A stretch of DNA of 32,000 nt from Deltaproteobacteria bacterium HGW-Deltaproteobacteria-3 (GTDB lineage Bacteria; Desulfobacterota; Desulfobulbia; Desulfobulbales; Desulfurivibrionaceae). The position numbers were made by a program, and so were the translations under genes. Under the pieces are notes generated by a model, which ran no database searches, was not told the origin of the DNA, and saw nothing but the letters and a program-made list of their open reading frames with translations. Below, in pieces: positions 15,868 through 32,000 of the stretch. Every line of letters begins with the position of its first letter. The first letter of the stretch is position 1. The stretch spans positions 6,946 to 38,945 of the forward strand of contig PHAW01000009.1 in assembly GCA_002841785.1 (NCBI GenBank). The letters run 5' to 3'.

Positions 15868-16179
15868 TCAGCAACAGGAGCCGCCGCCCGGCTTTTCCTC
15901 AATCGCGCAGCAGGCTTCGCTGCCACGGCCAAGCATGGCATGGAATACCGCCTGGGCGCAACCGACCCCGCTTTGCACCCAGATCACTCCGGCGGGGCAA
16001 TTCATCATGCAGGCTCCGCACTCCATGCAGGCGTCCTGTTCGCTGATCCGCGCCTTGCCGTGCGCCATGACAAAAACCTCCTGCGGACAGACCGCCAGAC
16101 ACATGCCGCAGCCCATGCAGCCATCCTGCTCCAGCCGCAGGGTGGCAACTCCCCTGAGATACAGTTGCCTTCTCCTCAT
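15868..16179 (-). CDS. hgcB: Mercury methylation ferredoxin HgcB (2x[4Fe-4S])
   Basis: CMGCGMCLAVCP and CMECGACMMNCP cluster motifs, a GVGCA cysteine, and a C-terminal ...GGGSCC vicinal Cys pair. ATG 16179 overlaps the hgcA stop (ATGA). I trimmed 13 residues from the track's N-terminus. Confidence 0.88.
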   Translation of the reverse strand: MRRRQLYLRGVATLRLEQDGCMGCGMCLAVCPQEVFVMAHGKARISEQDACMECGACMMNCPAGVIWVQSGVGCAQAVFHAMLGRGSEACCAIEEKPGGGSCC

Positions 16180-23097: not shown

Positions 23098-26000
23098 TTA
23101 TTGCTGCCCAGGCTCAAGACTTTTTGCCCTGCCCGTCAAAAACTTCCAGCCCTTGTCCACATCTTTCTGGGCCAGTTCCATCAACTCGTCAAACATCCCG
23201 GGATTGGTGAGCTTCAAGGCCCTGTACCTGTTTTCATTCATGGCATAGTCACTGAAAGGAATTGCCGGGGCTTTCGAGTCAATGGTCAGCGGATTTCCAC
23301 CCGCCTCCTCAATCTGCGGATTATAGCGATACAGAGGCCAGTGCCCGCACTCCACCGCTTTTTTCTGCTGCTCAAGCCCCTTCGCCATGTTGATCCCATG
23401 GTTTATGCAATGCGAGTATGCGATGATCAACGACGGGCCGTTATACGCCTCCGCCTCGTTGAACGCCTTGACCACCTGGGCAGGATTGGCCCCCATGGCC
23501 ACCTTGGCCACAAAGACATTACCGTAAGTGGCAAAGATCATGCCGATATCCTTTTTGGCCATCCGTTTGCCGCCGGCGGCGAACTGGGCCGTAGCTGCAC
23601 GAGGGGTGGACTTTGACATCTGGCCGCCGGTGTTGGAATAGACCTCGGTATCCATCACCAGAACGTTGACGTTTTCACCCGAGGCCAGGACATGATCAAG
23701 GCCGCCGTAGCCGATATCATAGGCCCAGCCGTCGCCACCGAAGATCCAAACCGATTTTTTGACCAGGAAGTCGGCCACATGCAGCAATTGCTGGGACTTG
23801 CTGAAAGTGCTGCCTTCCAGTATTTTTTTCAATTCAGCCACTCGCCCGCGTTGGACCTCAATCTCAACCTGACTGCTCTGGGAAGCGTTGAGCAACTCAT
23901 CCACCATGGCCTGGCTAACAACCCCATCAATCACCCCATCCGCTAAGAGTTCAGCGGCCTGGGAGGCCATTTTGTTGACGGTCTGGCGCATACCGAGGCC
24001 GAACTCGGCATTGTCTTCAAACAGGGAGTTGGCCCAAGTCGGCCCCCGGCCATCATCCCGCTTGCAATAGGGAGTGGTGGGCAGGTTACCGCCGTAAATG
24101 GAGGAGCAGCCGGTGGCATTGGCGATCATCATCCGGTCGCCGAAGAGCTGGGTGGCCAGTTTGATGTACGGCGTCTCGCCGCAGCCCACACAGGCGCCTG
24201 GATATTCAAACAGGGGGCGGAGCAACTGGCTGCCCTTAATGGTGGCCGGCTTGACCTCGTTATAGTCAAGCTCCGGCAGGGTGAGGAAAAAGGCGTAATT
24301 GCCTGATTCCCGCTGGCGGATCTCTTCGTTATTAACAGCCATGGCCAAGGCCCGATCCTCGGTCTTTTTGCCGTCCGCATCCTTCTTGCGGGCCGGACAG
24401 ACGGAGACACAATGACTACAACCGTTGCAATCCTCGGTGGACACAGAGATGACAAATTTACGGCCCTCGAACTCTTTGCCCACGGCGTCGGCACTTTGCA
24501 GGGTGTCCGGCGCACCGGCCAGGGCATCCTTGGTAACGATTTTCATGCGGATGGAGGCGTGGGGGCAGACCAATGAGCACTGACCACACTGAATGCAGGT
24601 GTTCGCATCCCACAAGGGCACTTCCACAGCGATATTCCGTTTCTCATACTGGGTGGTGGCGGTGGGCCAGGTGCCGTCACAGGGCATCTGGGAAACCTTG
24701 ATGGTGTTACCCTTGCCCTCGATCATCTTTGCCGTCACCTCTTTGACAAAGGCAGGCGCATTGGCCGGTACGGTTGGCGGCAGTTCGTAGCCGGTGATTG
24801 CGCTTGGCACAGCAACGGCAACGATATTGTTCACCGCTGCGTCCACGGCGTCATAGTTCATCTTGACCACCTTTTCACCTTTGTTGCCGTAGGTCTTCTT
24901 GATGGCGGTCTTGATGGAGCTGATAGCCTCTTCCTTGGTGATGATGTCGGAAATCAGAAAAAAGGCAGTCTGCATGATCATATTGATACGGGCGCCAAGA
25001 CCGAGGGCCGCGGCAAGGCTCAGGGCATCGATGATGTAAAATTTCAGTTTCTTGTCGATCATCTGCTTTTGAACCTTGGCCGGCAGGTGATTCCAGACCT
25101 CATCCTTGCTGAAGGAGGTGGTGAGCAGAAAGGTGCCGTTTTCTTCGATGTTGGCCAGCATATCGTACTGGTCAAGAAAGGTGAACTTATGGCAGGCGAT
25201 GAAACTGGCCTTGTTGATAAGATAGGGAGCCATGATCTTGTTCTTGCCGAAACGCAGGTGGCTGGTGGTGATGGACCCTGATTTTTTGGAATCGTAGACA
25301 AAATAGCCCTGGGCGTTGTTGTCGGTCTCGGTGCCGATGATCTTGATGCTGTTCTTATTGGCGCCCACGGTGCCGTCCGCCCCTAGGCCGTAGAACATGG
25401 CCCGGTGGACATCCTTGCCTTCGATATCGTAGGTCTTGTCGTAGTCGAGGCTGGTAAAAGCCACATCGTCTTCAGGCCCCACGCAGAAATGGTTCTTGGG
25501 GTCTTTTGCACCCATATTGTCAAACACTGCCTTGACCATGGCCGGAGTAAACTCGGCGGAGCCCAAACCATAACGGCCACCGAGGACGATTGGCGCTTTT
25601 GACAGCACCCCTGCGTCCTGGGCCTCGCCGACAACGGTGCGGACATCCTGATACAGCGGCTCGCCGGCCGCGCCATTCTCCTTGGTCCGGTCGAGCACGG
25701 TGATGCGCTTCACACTGTCCGGCAGGGCACCGATAAGACCGCTTGCGCTGAAGGGCCTGAAGAGCCTTACTACGACAAGGCCGACTTTTTGTCCCTGGGC
25801 TATGAGATATTCCACCGTGGCGCGCACCGTCTCGGCTCCGGAAGCCATAACAACAATGATATCCTCGGCATCAGGGGCGCCGAAATAATCAAAAAGATGG
25901 TATTTGCGGCCGGTGAGTTGGGCGAATTTGTTCATGGTCTCTTGGACAATGTCCGGGACTGCTTCATAGAATTTGTTCACTGTTTCGCGGCCGGTGAAAT

Positions 26001-26673
26001 TAACATCCGGGTTCTGGGCCGTGCCTCGCATCATCGGTCGATCCGGGGAAAGACCACGCTTACGGTGGACGATAATCAGCTCTTCGTCGATCATGCTCCG
26101 CATGTCATCTTCAGAAAGCTGCTCGATTTTCTGGATTTCATGGGAGGTGCGGAAGCCATCAAAGAAATGCATGAAGGGGATGCGTGACTTGAGCGTTGAC
26201 TGGGTGGCGATGAGCGCCATGTCCTGGGCTTCCTGGACATTCTGAGCGCCGAGCATGGCCCAGCCGGTCTGCCGGGCTGCCATGATATCGCTGTGATCTC
26301 CGAAGATAGACAATCCCTGATAGGCCAGGGCGCGGGCGGAGATATGAAAAACCGTTGGGGTCAACTCGCCGGCAAGCTTGTTCATATTGGGCAAAAGAAG
26401 CATCAAACCCTGGGATGCAGAGAAAGTGGTGCACAGGGAGCCGGTGGTGAGGGAGCCGTGCAAAGCACCCGCCACCCCGGCTTCGGACTGCATCTGGCTT
26501 ACGGTGGGAACCGAGCCCCAGATGTTCTTCTGCCTGGCATTGGCCTTGGTGTCGGACTCTGCCGCCATGGAGGTTGACGGGGTGATGGGGTAGATGGTGA
26601 TAATTTCGCTGGTGGCGTAAGCCACATGGGTGCACGCCTGGTTGCCGTCAATGGTGACCATTTTTCGGGACAT
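23098..26673 (-). CDS. nifJ: Pyruvate:ferredoxin (flavodoxin) oxidoreductase, single-polypeptide PFOR
   Basis: 1191 aa. N-terminus is MVTIDGNQACTHVAYATSEIITIYPITPS. Internal 2x[4Fe-4S] ferredoxin domain (CIQCGQCSLVCP, CNGCSHCVSVCP). TPP-binding GGDGWAYDIGYGGLDH motif. Confidence 0.97.
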   Translation of the reverse strand: MSRKMVTIDGNQACTHVAYATSEIITIYPITPSTSMAAESDTKANARQKNIWGSVPTVSQMQSEAGVAGALHGSLTTGSLCTTFSASQGLMLLLPNMNKLAGELTPTVFHISARALAYQGLSIFGDHSDIMAARQTGWAMLGAQNVQEAQDMALIATQSTLKSRIPFMHFFDGFRTSHEIQKIEQLSEDDMRSMIDEELIIVHRKRGLSPDRPMMRGTAQNPDVNFTGRETVNKFYEAVPDIVQETMNKFAQLTGRKYHLFDYFGAPDAEDIIVVMASGAETVRATVEYLIAQGQKVGLVVVRLFRPFSASGLIGALPDSVKRITVLDRTKENGAAGEPLYQDVRTVVGEAQDAGVLSKAPIVLGGRYGLGSAEFTPAMVKAVFDNMGAKDPKNHFCVGPEDDVAFTSLDYDKTYDIEGKDVHRAMFYGLGADGTVGANKNSIKIIGTETDNNAQGYFVYDSKKSGSITTSHLRFGKNKIMAPYLINKASFIACHKFTFLDQYDMLANIEENGTFLLTTSFSKDEVWNHLPAKVQKQMIDKKLKFYIIDALSLAAALGLGARINMIMQTAFFLISDIITKEEAISSIKTAIKKTYGNKGEKVVKMNYDAVDAAVNNIVAVAVPSAITGYELPPTVPANAPAFVKEVTAKMIEGKGNTIKVSQMPCDGTWPTATTQYEKRNIAVEVPLWDANTCIQCGQCSLVCPHASIRMKIVTKDALAGAPDTLQSADAVGKEFEGRKFVISVSTEDCNGCSHCVSVCPARKKDADGKKTEDRALAMAVNNEEIRQRESGNYAFFLTLPELDYNEVKPATIKGSQLLRPLFEYPGACVGCGETPYIKLATQLFGDRMMIANATGCSSIYGGNLPTTPYCKRDDGRGPTWANSLFEDNAEFGLGMRQTVNKMASQAAELLADGVIDGVVSQAMVDELLNASQSSQVEIEVQRGRVAELKKILEGSTFSKSQQLLHVADFLVKKSVWIFGGDGWAYDIGYGGLDHVLASGENVNVLVMDTEVYSNTGGQMSKSTPRAATAQFAAGGKRMAKKDIGMIFATYGNVFVAKVAMGANPAQVVKAFNEAEAYNGPSLIIAYSHCINHGINMAKGLEQQKKAVECGHWPLYRYNPQIEEAGGNPLTIDSKAPAIPFSDYAMNENRYRALKLTNPGMFDELMELAQKDVDKGWKFLTGRAKSLEPGQQ

Positions 26674-26744: not shown

Positions 26745-29051
26745 TCAAACGCTGGCGGCTAACGCCGCGACAATCTTCTTGGGCAATTTGCCCAATGAAT
26801 CGAACTGCGGTTCAAACATCTTTTTCAAAACTCCTGTTGTCGTGGCGGAACCATTTCCGCCGTATACTTTTTTCTCGTCAATAGTCGGCATATGGGTCAT
26901 CAGGGGACACACGCCACATGCTTTACGCTTGGTCATGTCGTGGGTCAGGGCGATGATCTCCTTCAAGGCTCCTTCTTCGCCGGCATAGATCATCTCCCTG
27001 CCGATCTTGTCTGCAAGCCCGGTTCTTTCAATTACCGCCATCACTTCCCCCTTGACCCGGCACATGGCAAAACCAATCCCGGCCCGACGAACCCTGTCCA
27101 CCAGCAGGGACAAAGCGTCTTCCCCCGAAGCATCGATGTCATTGATACCGTCAGCGACCAGAAGGATGAATTTCAGCTCAGGATTGGCGGTGCGAATCCG
27201 GAACACCTGTTCGTCCAGATAACTGGCATTGGCAAAAAAAAGTGTCCCGTCAAAACGAATCACCGCGATATGACTGCACACCCGGAGTCCGTGATCGATG
27301 GCGCATCCCAATACGCCTTCATTACTCATCGCCAGGGTCGACACATTGGGATGCATCCTTCGATACAAAAACACCGCCACGGAAAGACAAACGCCCAGCA
27401 GAATTCCCTTGTCCAGATGCGGGGCAAAAACAAGAGTGGCGCAAAAACTGGCCACGGCGATTATCCCATCCGCCTTCTGCGCCTTCCAGGCATGAGCAAA
27501 CCCTTTCACCTGCACAAGGCTGATAACCGCCATCATAATGACTGCGGCGAGAACTGCCTGGGGCAGGTGATACAAAAGGGGAGTCAGAAACAGCAAGGTC
27601 ACGGTAACGACAATTGCACTGAAAACATTCGCCAATCCTGTCTTGCCGCCGGCCTGCAGATTCACCGCTGATCTCGAGAACGAGCCTGACACAGGATAGG
27701 AACCGCTGATGGAACCGAGGATGTTGGCCAGTCCCTGCCCTATCAATTCCTGATTGGCATCAAGCTTTTGCCCTGTTTTCGCGGCGATGGCCCTGGCGAT
27801 GGAAATTGCCTCCATAAAACCGAGCAGGGAAATAATCGCGGCATAGGAAAAAAGCTGCGAAAATACCTGGAGGTTTAATTCCGGAAAGCGCAGGGAAGGA
27901 ATACCTTGGGGGATATTGCCAACCACCGCACCTCCGCCGGTGAGAACCAAACGATTTTCCGGCAAAGCATTATTGCCTGCCTTGATCCGCCATGTCCGAC
28001 CATCTTCTTTCATTTCCGGCGGGGTCTCCCCCTTCCGGTAATAAACAACCCCATCTTTCGTTTGAACAGCGCTGAGTTGCATGGATCGCAAGGCTGATCT
28101 GTCGGCCTGGATCTTTCCCTTGGCCTCATCAAGCATGAGGCTATGCACCGCCTTATTGTGCTGCATTTCCAAAAGCGCCAACGGGTCAAAACCGGTCTTG
28201 TTTTTGGCCGCATTGATTTCGCCGATCACCGTCGAACGCTGTTCGCTATAAATCCTTATTTTTTCCACGCCATGATTGAACTCTTTCACCAGCCCCTGAA
28301 TTTCCTGCGAGCGTAAATCCTCAAGCGAGACGGTCTGGTGGCGCTCAAAGCCGGTGAACCAGGAAATCAGGGTGGTGATCACAACTGCGGCCAGAATTGC
28401 CGGTGCTTTCGGGTACGCTCTTTTCAAGCCCACCATGACGGCAATGGCCAGGACGGCCATGCCGAATGTCGGCCAGTGGATGTATTGCATGCCCCTCTGC
28501 AGCACAAGAAAAATGGTTTCGTAGTGGTATCCCGCCTTGTCGACCTCAACCCCGAATATTTTCGACAACTGCGAAGAAGCTATAATAATGGCGGCAGCAT
28601 TGGTAAACCCGCTGACCACCGGATGGGAGAGAAAATTGACCACGAGTCCGAGCCGGAAGACGCCAAGACAGAACTGAAAGAGGCCAACAATAAAGGCCAG
28701 CATGATGGCGTAGGCGATAAACTGCTCACTGCCCGCAGTGGCAATGGACTCAAGAGACGCTGCGGTCACCAGGGAAACCACCGCCACAGGACCTGTGGCG
28801 AGTTGCCTGCTCGACCCGAAAAAAGCCGCCACCATCGGCGGGAGAAAGGAAGCATACAAACCGTAATACGCCGGCAGGCCTGCGAGCTGGGCATAGGCCA
28901 TGGACTGAGGAATCAGCACCAGTGCCACGGTAATGCCGGCCACCGCATCCGCCTTGAATTTTTCCTTGTCGTACTCCCTGAGCCAGGGCAGAAACGGAAA
29001 CAATTTTAGAAGCAAAAGAAAAATCTCCCTTGTGTATCCACGATTAAGCAA
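26745..29051 (-). CDS. SulP-family anion permease with STAS domain, ~140-aa internal insertion and extended C-terminal tail
   Basis: GITVALVLIPQSMAYAQLAGLP is the SulP signature. The STAS domain is IAVIRFDGTLFFANASYL...DASGEDAL. The only in-frame start after the upstream TAG is TTG (29051). Confidence 0.85.
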   Translation of the reverse strand: MLNRGYTREIFLLLLKLFPFLPWLREYDKEKFKADAVAGITVALVLIPQSMAYAQLAGLPAYYGLYASFLPPMVAAFFGSSRQLATGPVAVVSLVTAASLESIATAGSEQFIAYAIMLAFIVGLFQFCLGVFRLGLVVNFLSHPVVSGFTNAAAIIIASSQLSKIFGVEVDKAGYHYETIFLVLQRGMQYIHWPTFGMAVLAIAVMVGLKRAYPKAPAILAAVVITTLISWFTGFERHQTVSLEDLRSQEIQGLVKEFNHGVEKIRIYSEQRSTVIGEINAAKNKTGFDPLALLEMQHNKAVHSLMLDEAKGKIQADRSALRSMQLSAVQTKDGVVYYRKGETPPEMKEDGRTWRIKAGNNALPENRLVLTGGGAVVGNIPQGIPSLRFPELNLQVFSQLFSYAAIISLLGFMEAISIARAIAAKTGQKLDANQELIGQGLANILGSISGSYPVSGSFSRSAVNLQAGGKTGLANVFSAIVVTVTLLFLTPLLYHLPQAVLAAVIMMAVISLVQVKGFAHAWKAQKADGIIAVASFCATLVFAPHLDKGILLGVCLSVAVFLYRRMHPNVSTLAMSNEGVLGCAIDHGLRVCSHIAVIRFDGTLFFANASYLDEQVFRIRTANPELKFILLVADGINDIDASGEDALSLLVDRVRRAGIGFAMCRVKGEVMAVIERTGLADKIGREMIYAGEEGALKEIIALTHDMTKRKACGVCPLMTHMPTIDEKKVYGGNGSATTTGVLKKMFEPQFDSLGKLPKKIVAALAASV

Positions 29052-29074: not shown

Positions 29075-29575
29075 CTAGGCTTTGCCTTTTTTAAGCTCTG
29101 CCGACTTTTTCATCAGACTTTCACGGGTTTTCGCCCTGAACTTTTCCAACTCCCCTGCGACCTCAGGATATTTAATCGATAGAATTTCACAGGCGAGATA
29201 GGCTGCATTCTTTGCGCCATCAATCGCCACGGTTGCCACAGGAACCCCCGGAGGCATCTGCACCGTGGCGTACAGCGCGTCAACTCCGTGCAGAGCCCCT
29301 GATGCCAGAGGAACCCCGATAACCGGCAAAGTGGTGTGGGCGGCAATGACCCCGGCCAAATGCGCCGCCATTCCGGCTCCGGCAATAATCACCTCAAGGC
29401 CGCGCTCTCTTGCCGTACCGGCATATTCCGCTGTTTTATCCGGAAGACGATGTGCGGAACTGATATCCATCTCATAGGGAATGCCCATTTCCGCAAGCAC
29501 CGCTCCTGCCTTTTCCATAACCGGAAGATCAGAGTCGCTGCCCATCAGAATTCCAACAAGTGGTTTGCTTTGCAT
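29075..29575 (-). CDS. purE: 5-(carboxyamino)imidazole ribonucleotide mutase (PurE)
   Basis: VGILMGSDSDLPVM, SAHRLP, IAGAGMAAHLAGV and PVIGVPL motifs. AAGGAGAG SD. Confidence 0.93.
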   Translation of the reverse strand: MQSKPLVGILMGSDSDLPVMEKAGAVLAEMGIPYEMDISSAHRLPDKTAEYAGTARERGLEVIIAGAGMAAHLAGVIAAHTTLPVIGVPLASGALHGVDALYATVQMPPGVPVATVAIDGAKNAAYLACEILSIKYPEVAGELEKFRAKTRESLMKKSAELKKGKA

Positions 29576-29667: not shown

Positions 29668-31473
29668 TCATGGGGCAATCTTTATATCTCTTAAGGTGGC
29701 GATAACCCTCAACAACGCTCTGGCTGCTTTTTCCGGCCCGGACGCTTCATACCCTGGAATGCCAAGCCGAGTCCGCAACTGACCGACCTTTACTCCGGAC
29801 TCGAATGCCGCCTCAAAAACCTTCCCGGCCAAATCTTCATGCGACTCTTTATATTGTGGCGGGCCAAAGATATTGGCAAAATACGAATGAACCAGACCGG
29901 TTGATGTCGTCGTTCCCTTGGCCATTACCGCCCCTTCCCGGAAAACGTTCAGCGCCTGGGCAGGGCTGGTAAATTGCTCAAGAATCGGATGCTCCGGGTC
30001 GACCTCTTCATAATTGTTGGCGTACAACAGGTAATCCAGAGGATACCCTTTCAGAACATCTTCAATGGTCGCCACCGGCAGCACGACACGGGCGTTGACC
30101 TTCTGCGGACTCATGATGATGGCCCTGTCAATCTGCCCGAAAGCATAGCCTTGCTGCAGGTCATCCAACCGGATAAATGCGCCGATTTCCGTGCCGTAGG
30201 CAATAAGCCGTCCTGCCTCATCAATCTCGATCGAACCCATGTCATCGGCGACAATCCGCATTTCCCGAATAAACGTTTCCCCGAGAATCCGGAATGCTTC
30301 CAGCGTTTCCGATTTTCCAGCAGCCGTATCCCCGATAAGCAGGATGTTAGCCTCTATACCGGTTTTGACAAAACCGCCTTTGAGGGAAATATGCACCATG
30401 GCCCCATGAAAAGGCAGGCGCCCGCGCTTCATCATGATCACATTGTGAAGGGTCAGGGTCATTTTTTTGAGATAGCCGAAATAGCCGAACCGATCTTCAA
30501 GCGGCACAGCTGCGACCAGCAAGTTATGCCCGGCATCATCGAAAAATACCGTTGGCAGATCACCGAATTGAACCATTTGTTCAGGAGGAGCGCCAAAAAC
30601 ATATACTGCATCGGGACCGGCACAAATCTGCTCGTCCGTGGCCAACTCAAAGAGGTTTGCGACAGAGGAGCCCAGCCCCATAAATTGGTGGTGAAAGTAT
30701 ATAAAAACAACGAGCGATCCGACCTGCGCCGGATAACAGAGGAAATCCTCCGGCGCTAAAACCAGGTCACTCAGCGGGTTGACCTCTGTCCGCTGGAATT
30801 GTCCGGTGCGCTTGTTTGTCGGGGGATCGATAATCAGGGGAGGAGCAATCCATATCTGACGGATAAACGGTATTTCACCCAATATTTTCTCATACGGTGT
30901 CGGCAGGCCGGAAACTTTTGCCACAGCAATAATGCCGACCTTGCATCCAGCCGCAACATGTCGATATACCCGAGGATGACTGCCTGTGATATTCTCGCAA
31001 ATATTGCGATACAACGAGCGAACTTGATGCGCCAAGGAGACAAGCGTCTCATTAAAAGCACGGTGGGGACGCTGATCCATGCAGTTTGGCCCGGGCTCGG
31101 AATACAGCACCATATAACGATCAAAGGATCGCCAATAATCGTACAGTTTCTCCACGAATTCATGAAAAGCCTGCTGCCGCAGCGGGTCAGACAAGAAAGC
31201 CGCCGAGGGGAGCAGAGAAACTACCTGCGCCACCGGATGTTCGCTCAGTGCTTTCAGGATATTGATGAACAGTCTCTTATCCCTGTCACTCTCGAGACAT
31301 AAGCCCAATTCCGACAACAGCGGTGATTCGTCGCAACGGAGATCAGCTATGTACTGGTTGAGCAACTCGTCGAATACTTCACTGTGAATGAGCTCTCTTT
31401 GCGACTCGCAGATCTTGCCGTCCGTGCTGATGATAATTTGCTTCCCTTGCCTGTGGATTTTTTTTGCCGCCAT
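29668..31473 (-). CDS. Uncharacterised ~600-aa protein with a C-terminal PEP-carboxykinase/HPr-kinase-superfamily nucleotide-binding catalytic core
   Basis: FGYLKKMTLTLHN...GRLPFHGAMV...LLIGDTAAGKSETLE (P-loop at 30333-30307)...IVADDMGSIEI...GTEIGAFIR...VNARVVLP. The order and spacing parallel ATP-PEPCK motifs, and the P-loop is HprK-like (GKSE). The start is ambiguous: ATG 31473 (preferred) or the track's 31569. Confidence 0.6.
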   Translation of the reverse strand: MAAKKIHRQGKQIIISTDGKICESQRELIHSEVFDELLNQYIADLRCDESPLLSELGLCLESDRDKRLFINILKALSEHPVAQVVSLLPSAAFLSDPLRQQAFHEFVEKLYDYWRSFDRYMVLYSEPGPNCMDQRPHRAFNETLVSLAHQVRSLYRNICENITGSHPRVYRHVAAGCKVGIIAVAKVSGLPTPYEKILGEIPFIRQIWIAPPLIIDPPTNKRTGQFQRTEVNPLSDLVLAPEDFLCYPAQVGSLVVFIYFHHQFMGLGSSVANLFELATDEQICAGPDAVYVFGAPPEQMVQFGDLPTVFFDDAGHNLLVAAVPLEDRFGYFGYLKKMTLTLHNVIMMKRGRLPFHGAMVHISLKGGFVKTGIEANILLIGDTAAGKSETLEAFRILGETFIREMRIVADDMGSIEIDEAGRLIAYGTEIGAFIRLDDLQQGYAFGQIDRAIIMSPQKVNARVVLPVATIEDVLKGYPLDYLLYANNYEEVDPEHPILEQFTSPAQALNVFREGAVMAKGTTTSTGLVHSYFANIFGPPQYKESHEDLAGKVFEAAFESGVKVGQLRTRLGIPGYEASGPEKAARALLRVIATLRDIKIAP

Positions 31474-31610
31474 AATGAGTCGCTCCGACCAACTGCTTGA
31501 ATACAAAAAAAAAGGCCGAAGAATCCTTAAAAAGGATGCATCGACCTTCATTCCAAGAACCGCACTCAACCCTTGAGTCGGCTGGACAAAATATCAGATA
31601 TGTTTCAGGC

Positions 31611-31650
31611 AAAAAAAAACGCACAATATCAGAAACAAGTCAGATATCGT
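31611..31650 (-). terminator. Candidate rho-independent terminator (8-bp AU-rich stem plus U9) downstream of the DUF2294 gene
   Basis: Minus-strand RNA: ACGAUAUC-(12 nt)-GAUAUUGU-GCG-UUUUUUUUU. It contains one G-U pair, so it is specific to the minus strand. Confidence 0.45.
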
Positions 31651-31779
31651 ACGGTCCTTTCTTGGCAGGTGCTTTTGACACCCCCCAAGTCTCAACCTAT
31701 GTAAGCAAGAACTTACCTTGTGATGCCCAGGAAGTCAACGGAAAAATCCGCTCATTTCTCCGAAGACAGAAAAGAGCTT

Positions 31780-32000
31780 TCAAGACAGGTCCGGGGCCGA
31801 ATTAAGAGTGAATAAAATTATTCTCTCGCCGGTCACAGTACTAATATCCGTGTGCAAACTTTTGACCTTTTTGCCTACAATGCCTTCTATGACGGCCTCT
31901 AGCAAAGGACGCCCTTTTTCAAGCAAGGTACACCGCACCTGTTTAATCAATTCTCGCCCGTTGGTAACATCGGCAGCACCTGCCAGCTGGTACTCCGCCT
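31780..32000 (-). CDS. DUF2294 (MpsC-like) domain protein, C-terminal part (5' end outside the window)
   Basis: Not in the ORF track. My translation of the reverse frame from 31998 is ...GRELIKQVRCTLLEKGRPLLEAVIEGIVGKKVKSLHTDISTVTGERIILFTLNSAPDLS*. The KV.SLHTDIS...GE.I..F.L pattern is typical of DUF2294. Stop at 31782-31780. Confidence 0.5.
   Translation of the reverse strand, partial: AEYQLAGAADVTNGRELIKQVRCTLLEKGRPLLEAVIEGIVGKKVKSLHTDISTVTGERIILFTLNSAPDLS

Follow-up and report, generated by a model that had tools for sequence, protein, structure and literature searches.

A divergent PEPCK-superfamily protein outside current family models, encoded behind a conserved leader RNA and an MpsC/DUF2294 gene

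A 32,000-nucleotide stretch of DNA from Deltaproteobacteria bacterium HGW-Deltaproteobacteria-3 (assembly GCA_002841785.1, contig PHAW01000009.1, positions 6,946 to 38,945; hereafter the window) carries a minus-strand gene for a protein of a divergent clade of the phosphoenolpyruvate carboxykinase (PEPCK) superfamily with PEPCK-type catalytic residues. This clade fails the hidden Markov model (HMM) tests for both the ATP- and the GTP-PEPCK classes, and it departs from canonical PEPCK in the HprK-like wording of its P-loop, in an adenine pocket that is not conserved and in a larger N-terminal region. The gene is located behind two successive terminator-like elements of a structured leader RNA, which is preceded by a gene of the MpsC/DUF2294 family. 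Judged from homology and context, the PEPCK-like protein is very probably a catalytically active PEPCK-superfamily phosphotransferase, while we regard it as an even call whether it catalyses the PEPCK reaction itself, between phosphoenolpyruvate (PEP) and oxaloacetate.

Fold and catalytic residues of the PEPCK-like protein

An AlphaFold2 model of the window protein was built from 20 homologs and compared with the PDB using Foldseek. All 50 matches listed were full-length PEPCKs of the GTP and ATP types (E 2e-10 to 8e-9, probability 1.00, 400–514 aligned columns), including the GTP enzymes of M. tuberculosis, rat and chicken and the ATP enzyme of A. succiniciproducens, and the window protein has the two-domain PEPCK fold. 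The best matches were the three GTP-PEPCKs (EC 4.1.1.32; E ~2e-10, up to 514 columns), with an identity of only 10–14% in the Foldseek alignments. The 25 Pfam families matched most often by 30 diverse family members include no GTP-PEPCK model, and the window protein gave no match to this class either.

Profile comparisons also lead to PEPCK. Sub-threshold matches to the Pfam PEPCK_ATP model were seen in 17 of the 30 diverse members, the best of which reached 25.2 bits against a cut-off of 26.5 and covered profile positions 103–226. Alignment of the family profile to E. coli PckA (sequence taken from NC_000913) with hhalign gave E 5.9e-5 for a smaller profile, with the catalytic motifs in register, and Prob 74% and E 2.7e-5 for a profile of 73 sequences. 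The original prediction had described an enzyme intermediate between PEPCK and HPr kinase (HprK) and had suggested a structure or profile search against PEPCK as a check. Both Foldseek and hhalign found membership of the PEPCK superfamily, and the intermediate position did not hold up, since none of the 50 listed Foldseek matches was an HprK and the 17 members with PEPCK_ATP matches stand against 7 of 30 with matches to Hpr_kinase_C.

Residue conservation was counted in 73 representatives clustered at 50% identity (Table 1). The metal-ligand Lys, His and Asp and one substrate Arg, which the original prediction considered to be retained, are present as K337, H356, D411 and R462 and are conserved among the homologs. 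In PckA, Y207 is the CO2-site Tyr, K213, H232 and D269 are the Mn2+ ligands and R333 is the Arg that binds oxaloacetate or PEP. H356 is found 19 residues past the second Lys, which is the spacing seen in PckA, although the alignment with the smaller profile had placed it one turn off H232. The Walker A and Asp-Asp motifs are both present, with G381, K387, S388, D410 and D411 conserved in 64–69 of the 73 representatives (K387 in 67). Further downstream, the motif AKGTTxxxG...FANxFG of the lid-like segment KGTTTSTGLVHSYFANIFGPPQ pairs with AKLAGTERG...FSACFG of PckA, the segment of the omega-loop lid; T521, T522, G526, N534, F536 and G537 are conserved here.

The sequence strings on which the original prediction relied, FGYLKK, GRLPFHGAMV, LLIGDTAAGKSE, IVADDMGSI, GTEIGAFIR and VNARVVLP, all occur in the translation in that order. 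Five of the six proposed correspondences with PckA were recovered by profile alignment, but the pairing of GTEIGAFIR with NFEGGCYAK was not; the PckA motif aligns with the non-conserved SIEIDEAGRLIAY instead. The P-loop is indeed of the HprK type, with the family consensus GDSGAGKSE and weak matches to Hpr_kinase_C. The N-terminal ~300 residues had been described as matching nothing, which is only partly true: residues 1 to ~260 gave no reliable residue-level match to PEPCK, but residues ~264–330 align with the last part of the PckA N-domain (xxNxF...KPDxI), and the Foldseek alignments to PEPCK extend over 400–514 columns. The family-specific part contains a β-hairpin, a predicted helical segment (~25–163 in the AlphaFold2 model) and conserved Arg and Asn residues (R119, R156, R171, N220 and R222) with no mapped PEPCK equivalent.

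The family thus shares with ATP-PEPCK (PckA, EC 4.1.1.49, PF01293) its fold as seen by Foldseek, a similar total length (601 aa here and 540 aa in PckA) and the aligned Tyr-x4-Lys-Lys, His, Walker A Lys-Ser/Thr, Asp-Asp, Asn-x-Arg and lid/FxAxFG elements. It differs by lying outside the PEPCK HMM, by a P-loop that reads GD(S/T)xAGKSE where PckA has GLSGTGKTT, and by a helical insert before the KK motif, which is preceded by ~330 residues compared to ~210 in PckA.

A widespread and conserved family

The PEPCK-like protein is matched by more than 5350 clusters at 90% identity, nearly all of ≈590 aa and without a precomputed Pfam domain. An exhaustive search of representatives at 50% identity returned 536 clusters, mostly full length and down to ~25% identity. 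At least 258 species-representative genomes carry the gene, and almost all of these are metagenome-assembled genomes (MAGs). Sequence identity is ~60% over at least ten phyla, with this level seen in Thermodesulfobacteriota, Planctomycetota (including Brocadiaceae), Actinomycetota, Chloroflexota, Bacillota, Latescibacterota, Sumerlaeia, Omnitrophota, Nitrospirota, Armatimonadota and Goldiibacteriota. The family is under strong purifying selection. The nearest relatives of the window protein (93–94% identity) are found in Desulfurivibrio and Desulfurivibrionaceae MAGs.

Many relatives are labelled "phosphoenolpyruvate carboxykinase" by RefSeq/PGAP, for example WP_237888278.1 of the cultured Dissulfurimicrobium hydrothermale, and others are labelled "hypothetical protein". 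The link to PEPCK is therefore not new, but we found no HMM support for the name, as no NCBIfam model matches. Our literature search found no experimental characterization of the family, and in this sense the description of the enzyme as uncharacterized stands in spite of the RefSeq name. The genome paper of D. hydrothermale does not mention the family (PMC8780430).

Weak local matches to Pfam DUF4914 were observed at residues ~300–405 in 9 of the 30 diverse members, among them P0132 and P0195. They span profile positions ~207–286 of 612, around the P-loop, and DUF4914 may be another uncharacterized family with a P-loop of the PEPCK/HprK type.

A conserved leader RNA upstream of the gene

The leader between the mpsC stop codon (31780–31782) and the ATG folds, over 206 nt, at -71.7 kcal/mol (z = -6.0 compared to shuffled sequences) and is conserved across phyla, in agreement with the long structured leader of the original prediction. 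In most of 26 loci the spacer between mpsC and the gene is 223–363 nt. The TTGAC..TAnnnT pair of a promoter-like element just past the mpsC stop codon recurs at the same place in the cross-phylum leader alignment; a generic promoter scan gave no report there. The long hairpin 1 that follows contains a conserved purine-G mismatch and has homologs with different stem sequences in other phyla, where covariation was read by eye. A first hairpin with a run of nine U residues is next, and then comes the core motif, for which the cross-phylum consensus is GUCCRNCCG-G-[GCYC-loop-GRGY]-GCG..YGGA. The intrinsic terminator at the end has the consensus AAGGYCGA..UCGGCCUU with a U-run and is found ~30–50 nt before the start codon.

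A covariance model (R1) was built from 21 sequences; it covers the core and the following terminator (31506–31599) and leaves out the upstream hairpins. R1 matches the window leader with 69.6 bits (E 2.6e-16). In 1.36 Mb of fetched loci, strong matches (38–84 bits) were confined to the position immediately 5' of the PEPCK-like gene, and 27 genome loci were matched at E<1e-6. Matches outside the seed are found in L002 and L003 (Brocadiaceae), L007, L017 (Syntrophaceae), L018 and L004/L040. Altogether the core motif is located upstream of the homologs in L002–L021, L029, L032, L034, L039–L041, L052, L066, L077, L087, L094, L096, L098 and L099. A pattern scan of metagenomes for the RNA core gave 16 matches, five of which were added to the loci, each being located 5' of a homolog and 3' of mpsC. 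The other 11 were rejected as chance matches, with no PEPCK-like gene and no R1 match at E≤0.1; two of them had chance-level R1 scores (E 0.12 and 0.24).

The modelled pairing is supported by compensatory changes in 22 of 25 pairs. Of all cells, 87.5% are paired, none of 500 shuffles reached the observed values, and all slid registers scored far lower than the R1 pairing. In the outer part of P1 the modelled pairing reaches only 62%; read by eye this part pairs in almost all sequences with a variable bulge (UCCA/UGGA, UCCG/CGGA, UCU/AGA, UUCG/CGAA). The upstream module (31611–31689) gives weak R1 matches in L005, L006 and L008 (15.9–30.8 bits), and there are hints of a tandem arrangement of the leader modules.

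No Rfam 15 family matched any part of the window at gathering thresholds, and at E≤10 the region 31400–31900 gave only chance-level matches to miRNAs, snoRNAs and other non-coding RNAs. The leader RNA is a candidate for a new riboswitch or antitermination target. It resembles terminator riboswitches and leaders with protein-dependent antitermination, such as hutP-terminator-hut, in having a structured element followed by an intrinsic terminator just 5' of the gene. The small conserved protein gene directly upstream also resembles the hutP arrangement. Unlike these known types, the leader described here has two successive modules of a hairpin and a U-run, and it has no Rfam match.

The MpsC/DUF2294 gene

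The gene upstream of the leader runs off the end of the window. Its encoded fragment matches an MpsC HMM built from the loci (1.2e-33), and the ortholog in L006 (9265–9687) matches Pfam MpsC (PF10057) with 1.6e-37; the orthologs of L006 and L005 both reach 128 bits (cut-off 23). A gene of this family is found immediately next to the PEPCK-like gene in 27 of 80 loci from at least seven phyla, upstream in all but one of them, and the MpsC homologs are 70–80% identical across phyla. It co-occurs almost perfectly with the core RNA motif, except that L017 lacks any mpsC within 10 kb and that mpsC lies on the downstream side in L040. MpsC/DUF2294 is otherwise known from the mpsABC inorganic-carbon transporter operon of S. 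aureus.

The AlphaFold2 model of MpsC is confident (pLDDT, the predicted local distance difference test score, of 89) and shows a duplicated unit of a helix and a β-hairpin. When compared with PDB folds it gave no match at E<0.001 (best E 0.027), so the fold may be one that is yet unsolved. A known RNA-binding fold was considered and rejected, as the weak uL23- and TRAPPC3-like matches are no evidence for it. Matches to CheY found with phmmer (E ~0.01, 40 residues) were judged to be spurious.

Gene neighbourhood

Neighbouring open reading frames (ORFs) were clustered from 80 genome loci collected with an alignment of closer homologs (A1), and three further loci were viewed. In the window, purE is located 92 nt downstream of the PEPCK-like gene on the same strand and is probably co-transcribed with it. 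The same order was found in 12 of the 80 loci and in several lineages. A SulP/STAS anion transporter gene is next; its L008 ortholog scores above the threshold of the NCBIfam sulP subfamily model, with matches to DauA (4e-67) and BicA (1e-40) below their cut-offs. It is followed by genes for pyruvate:ferredoxin oxidoreductase (PFOR), a neighbour in 7 of the 80 loci, all Desulfobulbales-like, and glyceraldehyde-3-phosphate dehydrogenase (GAPDH). In L004 the homolog adjoins a cluster for GAPDH, phosphoglycerate kinase (PGK) and triose-phosphate isomerase (TIM).

Other lineages have other neighbours. In ~12 loci, all from Planctomycetota (L031, L042, L054, L056, L058, L062–L065, L078, L079 and L083), the genes for 5-enolpyruvylshikimate-3-phosphate (EPSP) synthase (aroA) and chorismate synthase (aroC) flank the homolog upstream and downstream, respectively, on one strand; these loci have no MpsC gene or leader motif. 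Eight loci from ~5 phyla have a major facilitator superfamily (MFS) transporter gene of the Nodulin-like/OFA-like type directly downstream, and two loci have a DRE-TIM lyase-like gene on the downstream side. Five loci from at least three phyla (L039, L041, L053, L067 and L077) have a gene for a hexapeptide-repeat protein of ~200 aa directly downstream (median gap ~40 nt), for which the best NCBIfam matches are the CcmM gamma-carbonic-anhydrase domain and "carbonic anhydrase" (E ~1e-40, below cut-offs). SbtA-type and SulP transporters and a carboxyltransferase were seen as neighbours in isolated cases. In a Brocadiaceae genome the gene adjoins those for formyltetrahydrofolate synthetase (FTHFS), formate dehydrogenase and CO dehydrogenase/acetyl-CoA synthase (CODH/ACS), and CODH/ACS-related genes are also present in the window, farther from the PEPCK-like gene. 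When 150 non-redundant neighbour ORFs were compared with Pfam, no further family recurred across lineages, and tblastn with E. coli PckA found no canonical PEPCK in the fetched loci.

PEPCK uses CO2 and not bicarbonate (PMC8100219). The themes of the neighbourhood are PEP, either made or consumed, and CO2/bicarbonate, which fits a PEPCK-like role and supports it without proving it.

The remaining part of the window contains an ORF at 16176–17231 (minus strand) with a CdhD domain (CO dehydrogenase/acetyl-CoA synthase delta subunit), which fits a Wood-Ljungdahl organism. A ThiS-like/ThiF fusion (21036–21848, minus strand) and ThiG (20070–20855, minus strand) adjoin the GAPDH and PFOR genes and appear to be unrelated to the PEPCK-like gene. 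Two long ORFs on the plus strand at 17597–20630 (550 and 596 aa) have no Pfam match and overlap minus-strand ORFs; we read them as probable antisense shadows of GC-rich DNA and not as genes.

Table 1. Features of the window, with positions numbered from its first nucleotide. Conservation is given as the number of the 73 family representatives.
Feature	Position	Strand	Basis
CDS (coding sequence) of the PEPCK-like protein, 601 aa	29668..31473	-	Stop codon 29668-29670; conserved start, homologs, fold and profile matches
Residues 1-263, family-specific N-terminal region	30685..31473	-	AlphaFold2 secondary structure; conservation in 73 representatives
YFGYLKK; Y331, K336, K337 = PckA Y207, K212, K213	30463..30483	-	Profile alignment; conserved in 70, 71 and 63 of 73
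H356 = PckA H232	30406..30408	-	Alignment of 73-sequence profile; conserved in 65 of 73
P-loop GDTAAGKSE (Walker A)	30307..30333	-	G381..G386-K387-S388 pairs with PckA G248..G253-K254-T255
D410-D411, kinase-2 motif = PckA D268-D269	30241..30246	-	Profile alignment; each conserved in 68 of 73
N460-A-R462 = PckA N331-T-R333	30088..30096	-	Asn in 67 representatives; Arg in 66, Lys in 4 others
Lid-like segment KGTTTSTGLVHSYFANIFGPPQ	29854..29919	-	Aligned with PckA lid-loop region by hhalign
Leader, 306 nt, mpsC stop codon to ATG	31474..31779	-	Sequence; cross-phylum alignment
Putative promoter-like TTGACT-N17-TAAGTT, just past mpsC stop	31710..31738	-	Read from sequence
Leader hairpin 1, CTTGG-G-GGGTG..CACCT-G-CCAAG	31661..31689	-	Minimum free energy fold
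First hairpin and U9 run, terminator-like	31611..31655	-	Fold; equivalent in most aligned leaders
Core RNA motif: P1 (UCCR..CCG / CGG..YGGA), P2 hairpin (GCYC-loop-GRGY), GCG junction, terminator	31506..31599	-	Covariance model R1
Intrinsic terminator, AAGGTCGA..TCGGCCTT and U-run	31505-31548	-	Leader alignment
MpsC/DUF2294-family gene, 3' end, runs off window	31780..32000	-	Translation ends GERIILFTLNSAPDLS*; HMM match
purE (aminoimidazole ribonucleotide (AIR) carboxylase family)	29075..29575	-	Pfam AIRC 1.9e-63
SulP/STAS anion transporter	26745..29051	-	Pfam
PFOR	23098..26673	-	Pfam POR_N, POR, EKR, TPP_enzyme_C
GAPDH	21924..23000	-	Pfam Gp_dh_N, Gp_dh_C

Reading frame and base composition

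The window contains an ORF at 29668..31569 (minus strand), for which the conserved ATG at 31473 gives the 601-aa protein. As the N-terminal MA.K...G.Q.I aligns in all homologs, this ATG is taken as the true start, and it bears out the gene coordinates of the original prediction (29668–31473). The longer ORF starting with TTG (to 31569) was rejected because the extension lacks conservation and overlaps the leader terminator.

The gene and its flank had also been described as less GC-rich than the 6–22 kb region, and this is correct (0.517 for the gene and 0.447 for the leader compared to 0.596). Recent horizontal transfer was rejected as the source of the low GC content. The GC content falls gradually from ~23 kb and the gene order mpsC-gene-purE-(SulP)-PFOR is common to the Desulfobulbales relatives, so the lower value is not evidence of a recent transfer.

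Proposed function and alternative explanations

The PEPCK-like protein would move a phosphoryl group onto or off an enolate in a metal-dependent (Mn2+/Mg2+) reaction that is coupled to carboxylation or decarboxylation. The proposed reaction is PEP + CO2 + NDP <-> oxaloacetate + NTP, where NDP and NTP are a nucleoside di- and triphosphate. The phosphoryl donor may be other than ATP; the nucleotide pocket differs from that of ATP-PEPCK. In an organism with the Wood-Ljungdahl pathway and PFOR the enzyme could convert oxaloacetate to PEP for gluconeogenesis and synthesis of aromatic amino acids, or it could convert PEP and CO2 to oxaloacetate with energy conservation. The leader may act by ligand- or protein-dependent antitermination: transcription would continue into the gene only if a metabolite or MpsC, as the signal, blocks formation of the terminator. 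The MpsC-family protein would be the obvious candidate partner of the leader.

Several points weigh against the assignment as a PEPCK, as every functional step draws on homology and context. The AlphaFold2 model is of moderate quality (pLDDT 69, predicted template modelling score (pTM) 0.60), and the template modelling (TM) scores to PEPCK in Foldseek, including the GTP enzymes, are only 0.35–0.40. The stretches of low confidence are the most conserved active-site loops, which limits structural inference, although low confidence may be expected if these loops are mobile. No PEPCK match was found for the window protein in Pfam at E≤10. It reaches the threshold of neither PEPCK Pfam model nor of any NCBIfam model, the NCBIfam scan giving zero matches, and sequence searches of the PDB with phmmer and with a 20-sequence profile gave nothing relevant and no PEPCK. 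The adenine-pocket positions of PckA (R449, I452 and T455) and K288 are not conserved in the family, and the positions aligned to the pocket hold other residues (E576, G579 and others). An equivalent of PckA R65, the substrate Arg of the N-domain, was not located, and low-stringency hhalign has zero confidence in that region. With the exception of MpsC, the neighbours are heterogeneous and differ between lineages. Finally, PEP synthase and pyruvate carboxylase are annotated in D. hydrothermale (PMC8780430), so that a PEPCK is not obviously required in this organism.

The main alternative is a kinase or lyase with a PEPCK fold that acts on another substrate, such as a 2-oxo or enol acid or a C3/C4 phospho-metabolite, possibly with pyrophosphate (PPi) or phosphate (Pi) as in HprK/P. 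We consider this a serious but clearly less probable explanation. The family-specific N-terminal ~260 residues with their invariant Arg and Asn, the different nucleotide-base pocket, the HprK-like P-loop, the scores of the window protein below every PEPCK HMM threshold, and the downstream MFS transporter and DRE-TIM lyase-like genes would all agree with it. On the other hand, Y331, K337 and R462, the contacts to oxaloacetate/PEP and CO2, and the lid are as conserved as the nucleotide-binding residues, and PEP is the common denominator of the gene contexts. Conversely, the protein could be an ordinary PEPCK ortholog with nothing unusual about it, as suggested by the RefSeq/PGAP names and by the agreement of fold and catalytic motifs. 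The failure to reach any Pfam (ATP or GTP type) or NCBIfam threshold, the PDB sequence searches without PEPCK, the adenine pocket and the length of the region before the KK motif make this improbable. PPi-dependent PEPCK (EC 4.1.1.38), with which the PEPCK-like protein possibly shares its metabolic node, is a much larger protein; PPi as donor is conceivable for the PEPCK-like protein as well, which is speculation. The PPi-dependent enzyme is evolutionarily unrelated to ATP- and GTP-PEPCK, and a 2020 review of the PEP node lists only the ATP, GTP and PPi classes of PEPCK (PMC8100219), which also speaks against an ordinary ortholog.

The C-domains of HprK and PEPCK belong to one superfamily, and HprK/P is a two-domain protein of ~310 aa that phosphorylates a protein. 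A serine kinase/phosphorylase of this kind acting on a protein substrate is very unlikely here, even though the only Pfam match of the window protein is to Hpr_kinase_C (PF07475; residues 374–425, E 0.079, 12.9 bits against a cut-off of 33.3). The 7 members matched by this model are matched from the P-loop to the DD motif and below threshold (best 22.7 bits, 7.7e-5). The family consensus and the (I/V)xDD strand resemble the HprK wording, for which the P-loop signature is GxSGxGKSE. Against this, the listed Foldseek matches are all PEPCKs over more than 400 columns, the window protein is almost twice as long (601 aa vs. ~310 aa), and no phosphotransferase system (PTS) genes were seen beside the PEPCK-like gene among the annotated neighbours in the window and the loci. 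The family also conserves the KK, His, NxR and lid motifs, which are specific to PEPCK, and HprK/P is not known to have the KK/His Mn2+ site, the NxR Arg or the lid. The order aroA-gene-aroC on one strand could point to a non-orthologous enzyme of the shikimate pathway, for example a kinase, but this we likewise find very unlikely: the synteny is confined to one phylum and the neighbours elsewhere are MpsC, PurE, PFOR, GAPDH/PGK/TIM and gamma-carbonic-anhydrase-like genes, and a simple kinase would need no Mn2+ triad, CO2-site Tyr or lid. As AroA consumes PEP, this context fits a PEP-supplying enzyme equally well.

The assignment to an active PEPCK-superfamily phosphotransferase also leaves room for a more far-reaching, tentative idea. 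The family might be a fourth, mechanistically distinct class of the superfamily with another donor and/or carboxylate substrate, widespread in anaerobic and largely uncultivated phyla. Its control would then lie with a new class of riboswitch, or with MpsC/DUF2294 as a new RNA-binding regulator, sensing a metabolite from the PEP/oxaloacetate/CO2 node. We consider this possible rather than probable.

Biological implications

The enzyme is not categorically new, as it is already loosely labelled PEPCK in RefSeq. The PEP-pyruvate-oxaloacetate node nevertheless decides the carbon flow in autotrophs and fermenters, and a highly conserved PEPCK-like family lies outside HMM coverage. As no HMM covers the family and we found none that supports its name, it is either overlooked in metabolic reconstructions of Desulfobulbales, anammox bacteria, Planctomycetota, Chloroflexota and others or credited there with a presumed reaction.

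Nothing was found in the searchable literature on the leader RNA or on its coupling to MpsC/DUF2294, so both seem to be undescribed, and they are the most novel element of the system. The RNA is dedicated to this gene, is found across phyla and is absent from Rfam 15, and the ligand or protein that flips the terminator should report on the substrate or product of the enzyme. For MpsC/DUF2294, a widespread domain of unknown function, the locus provides a first testable context.

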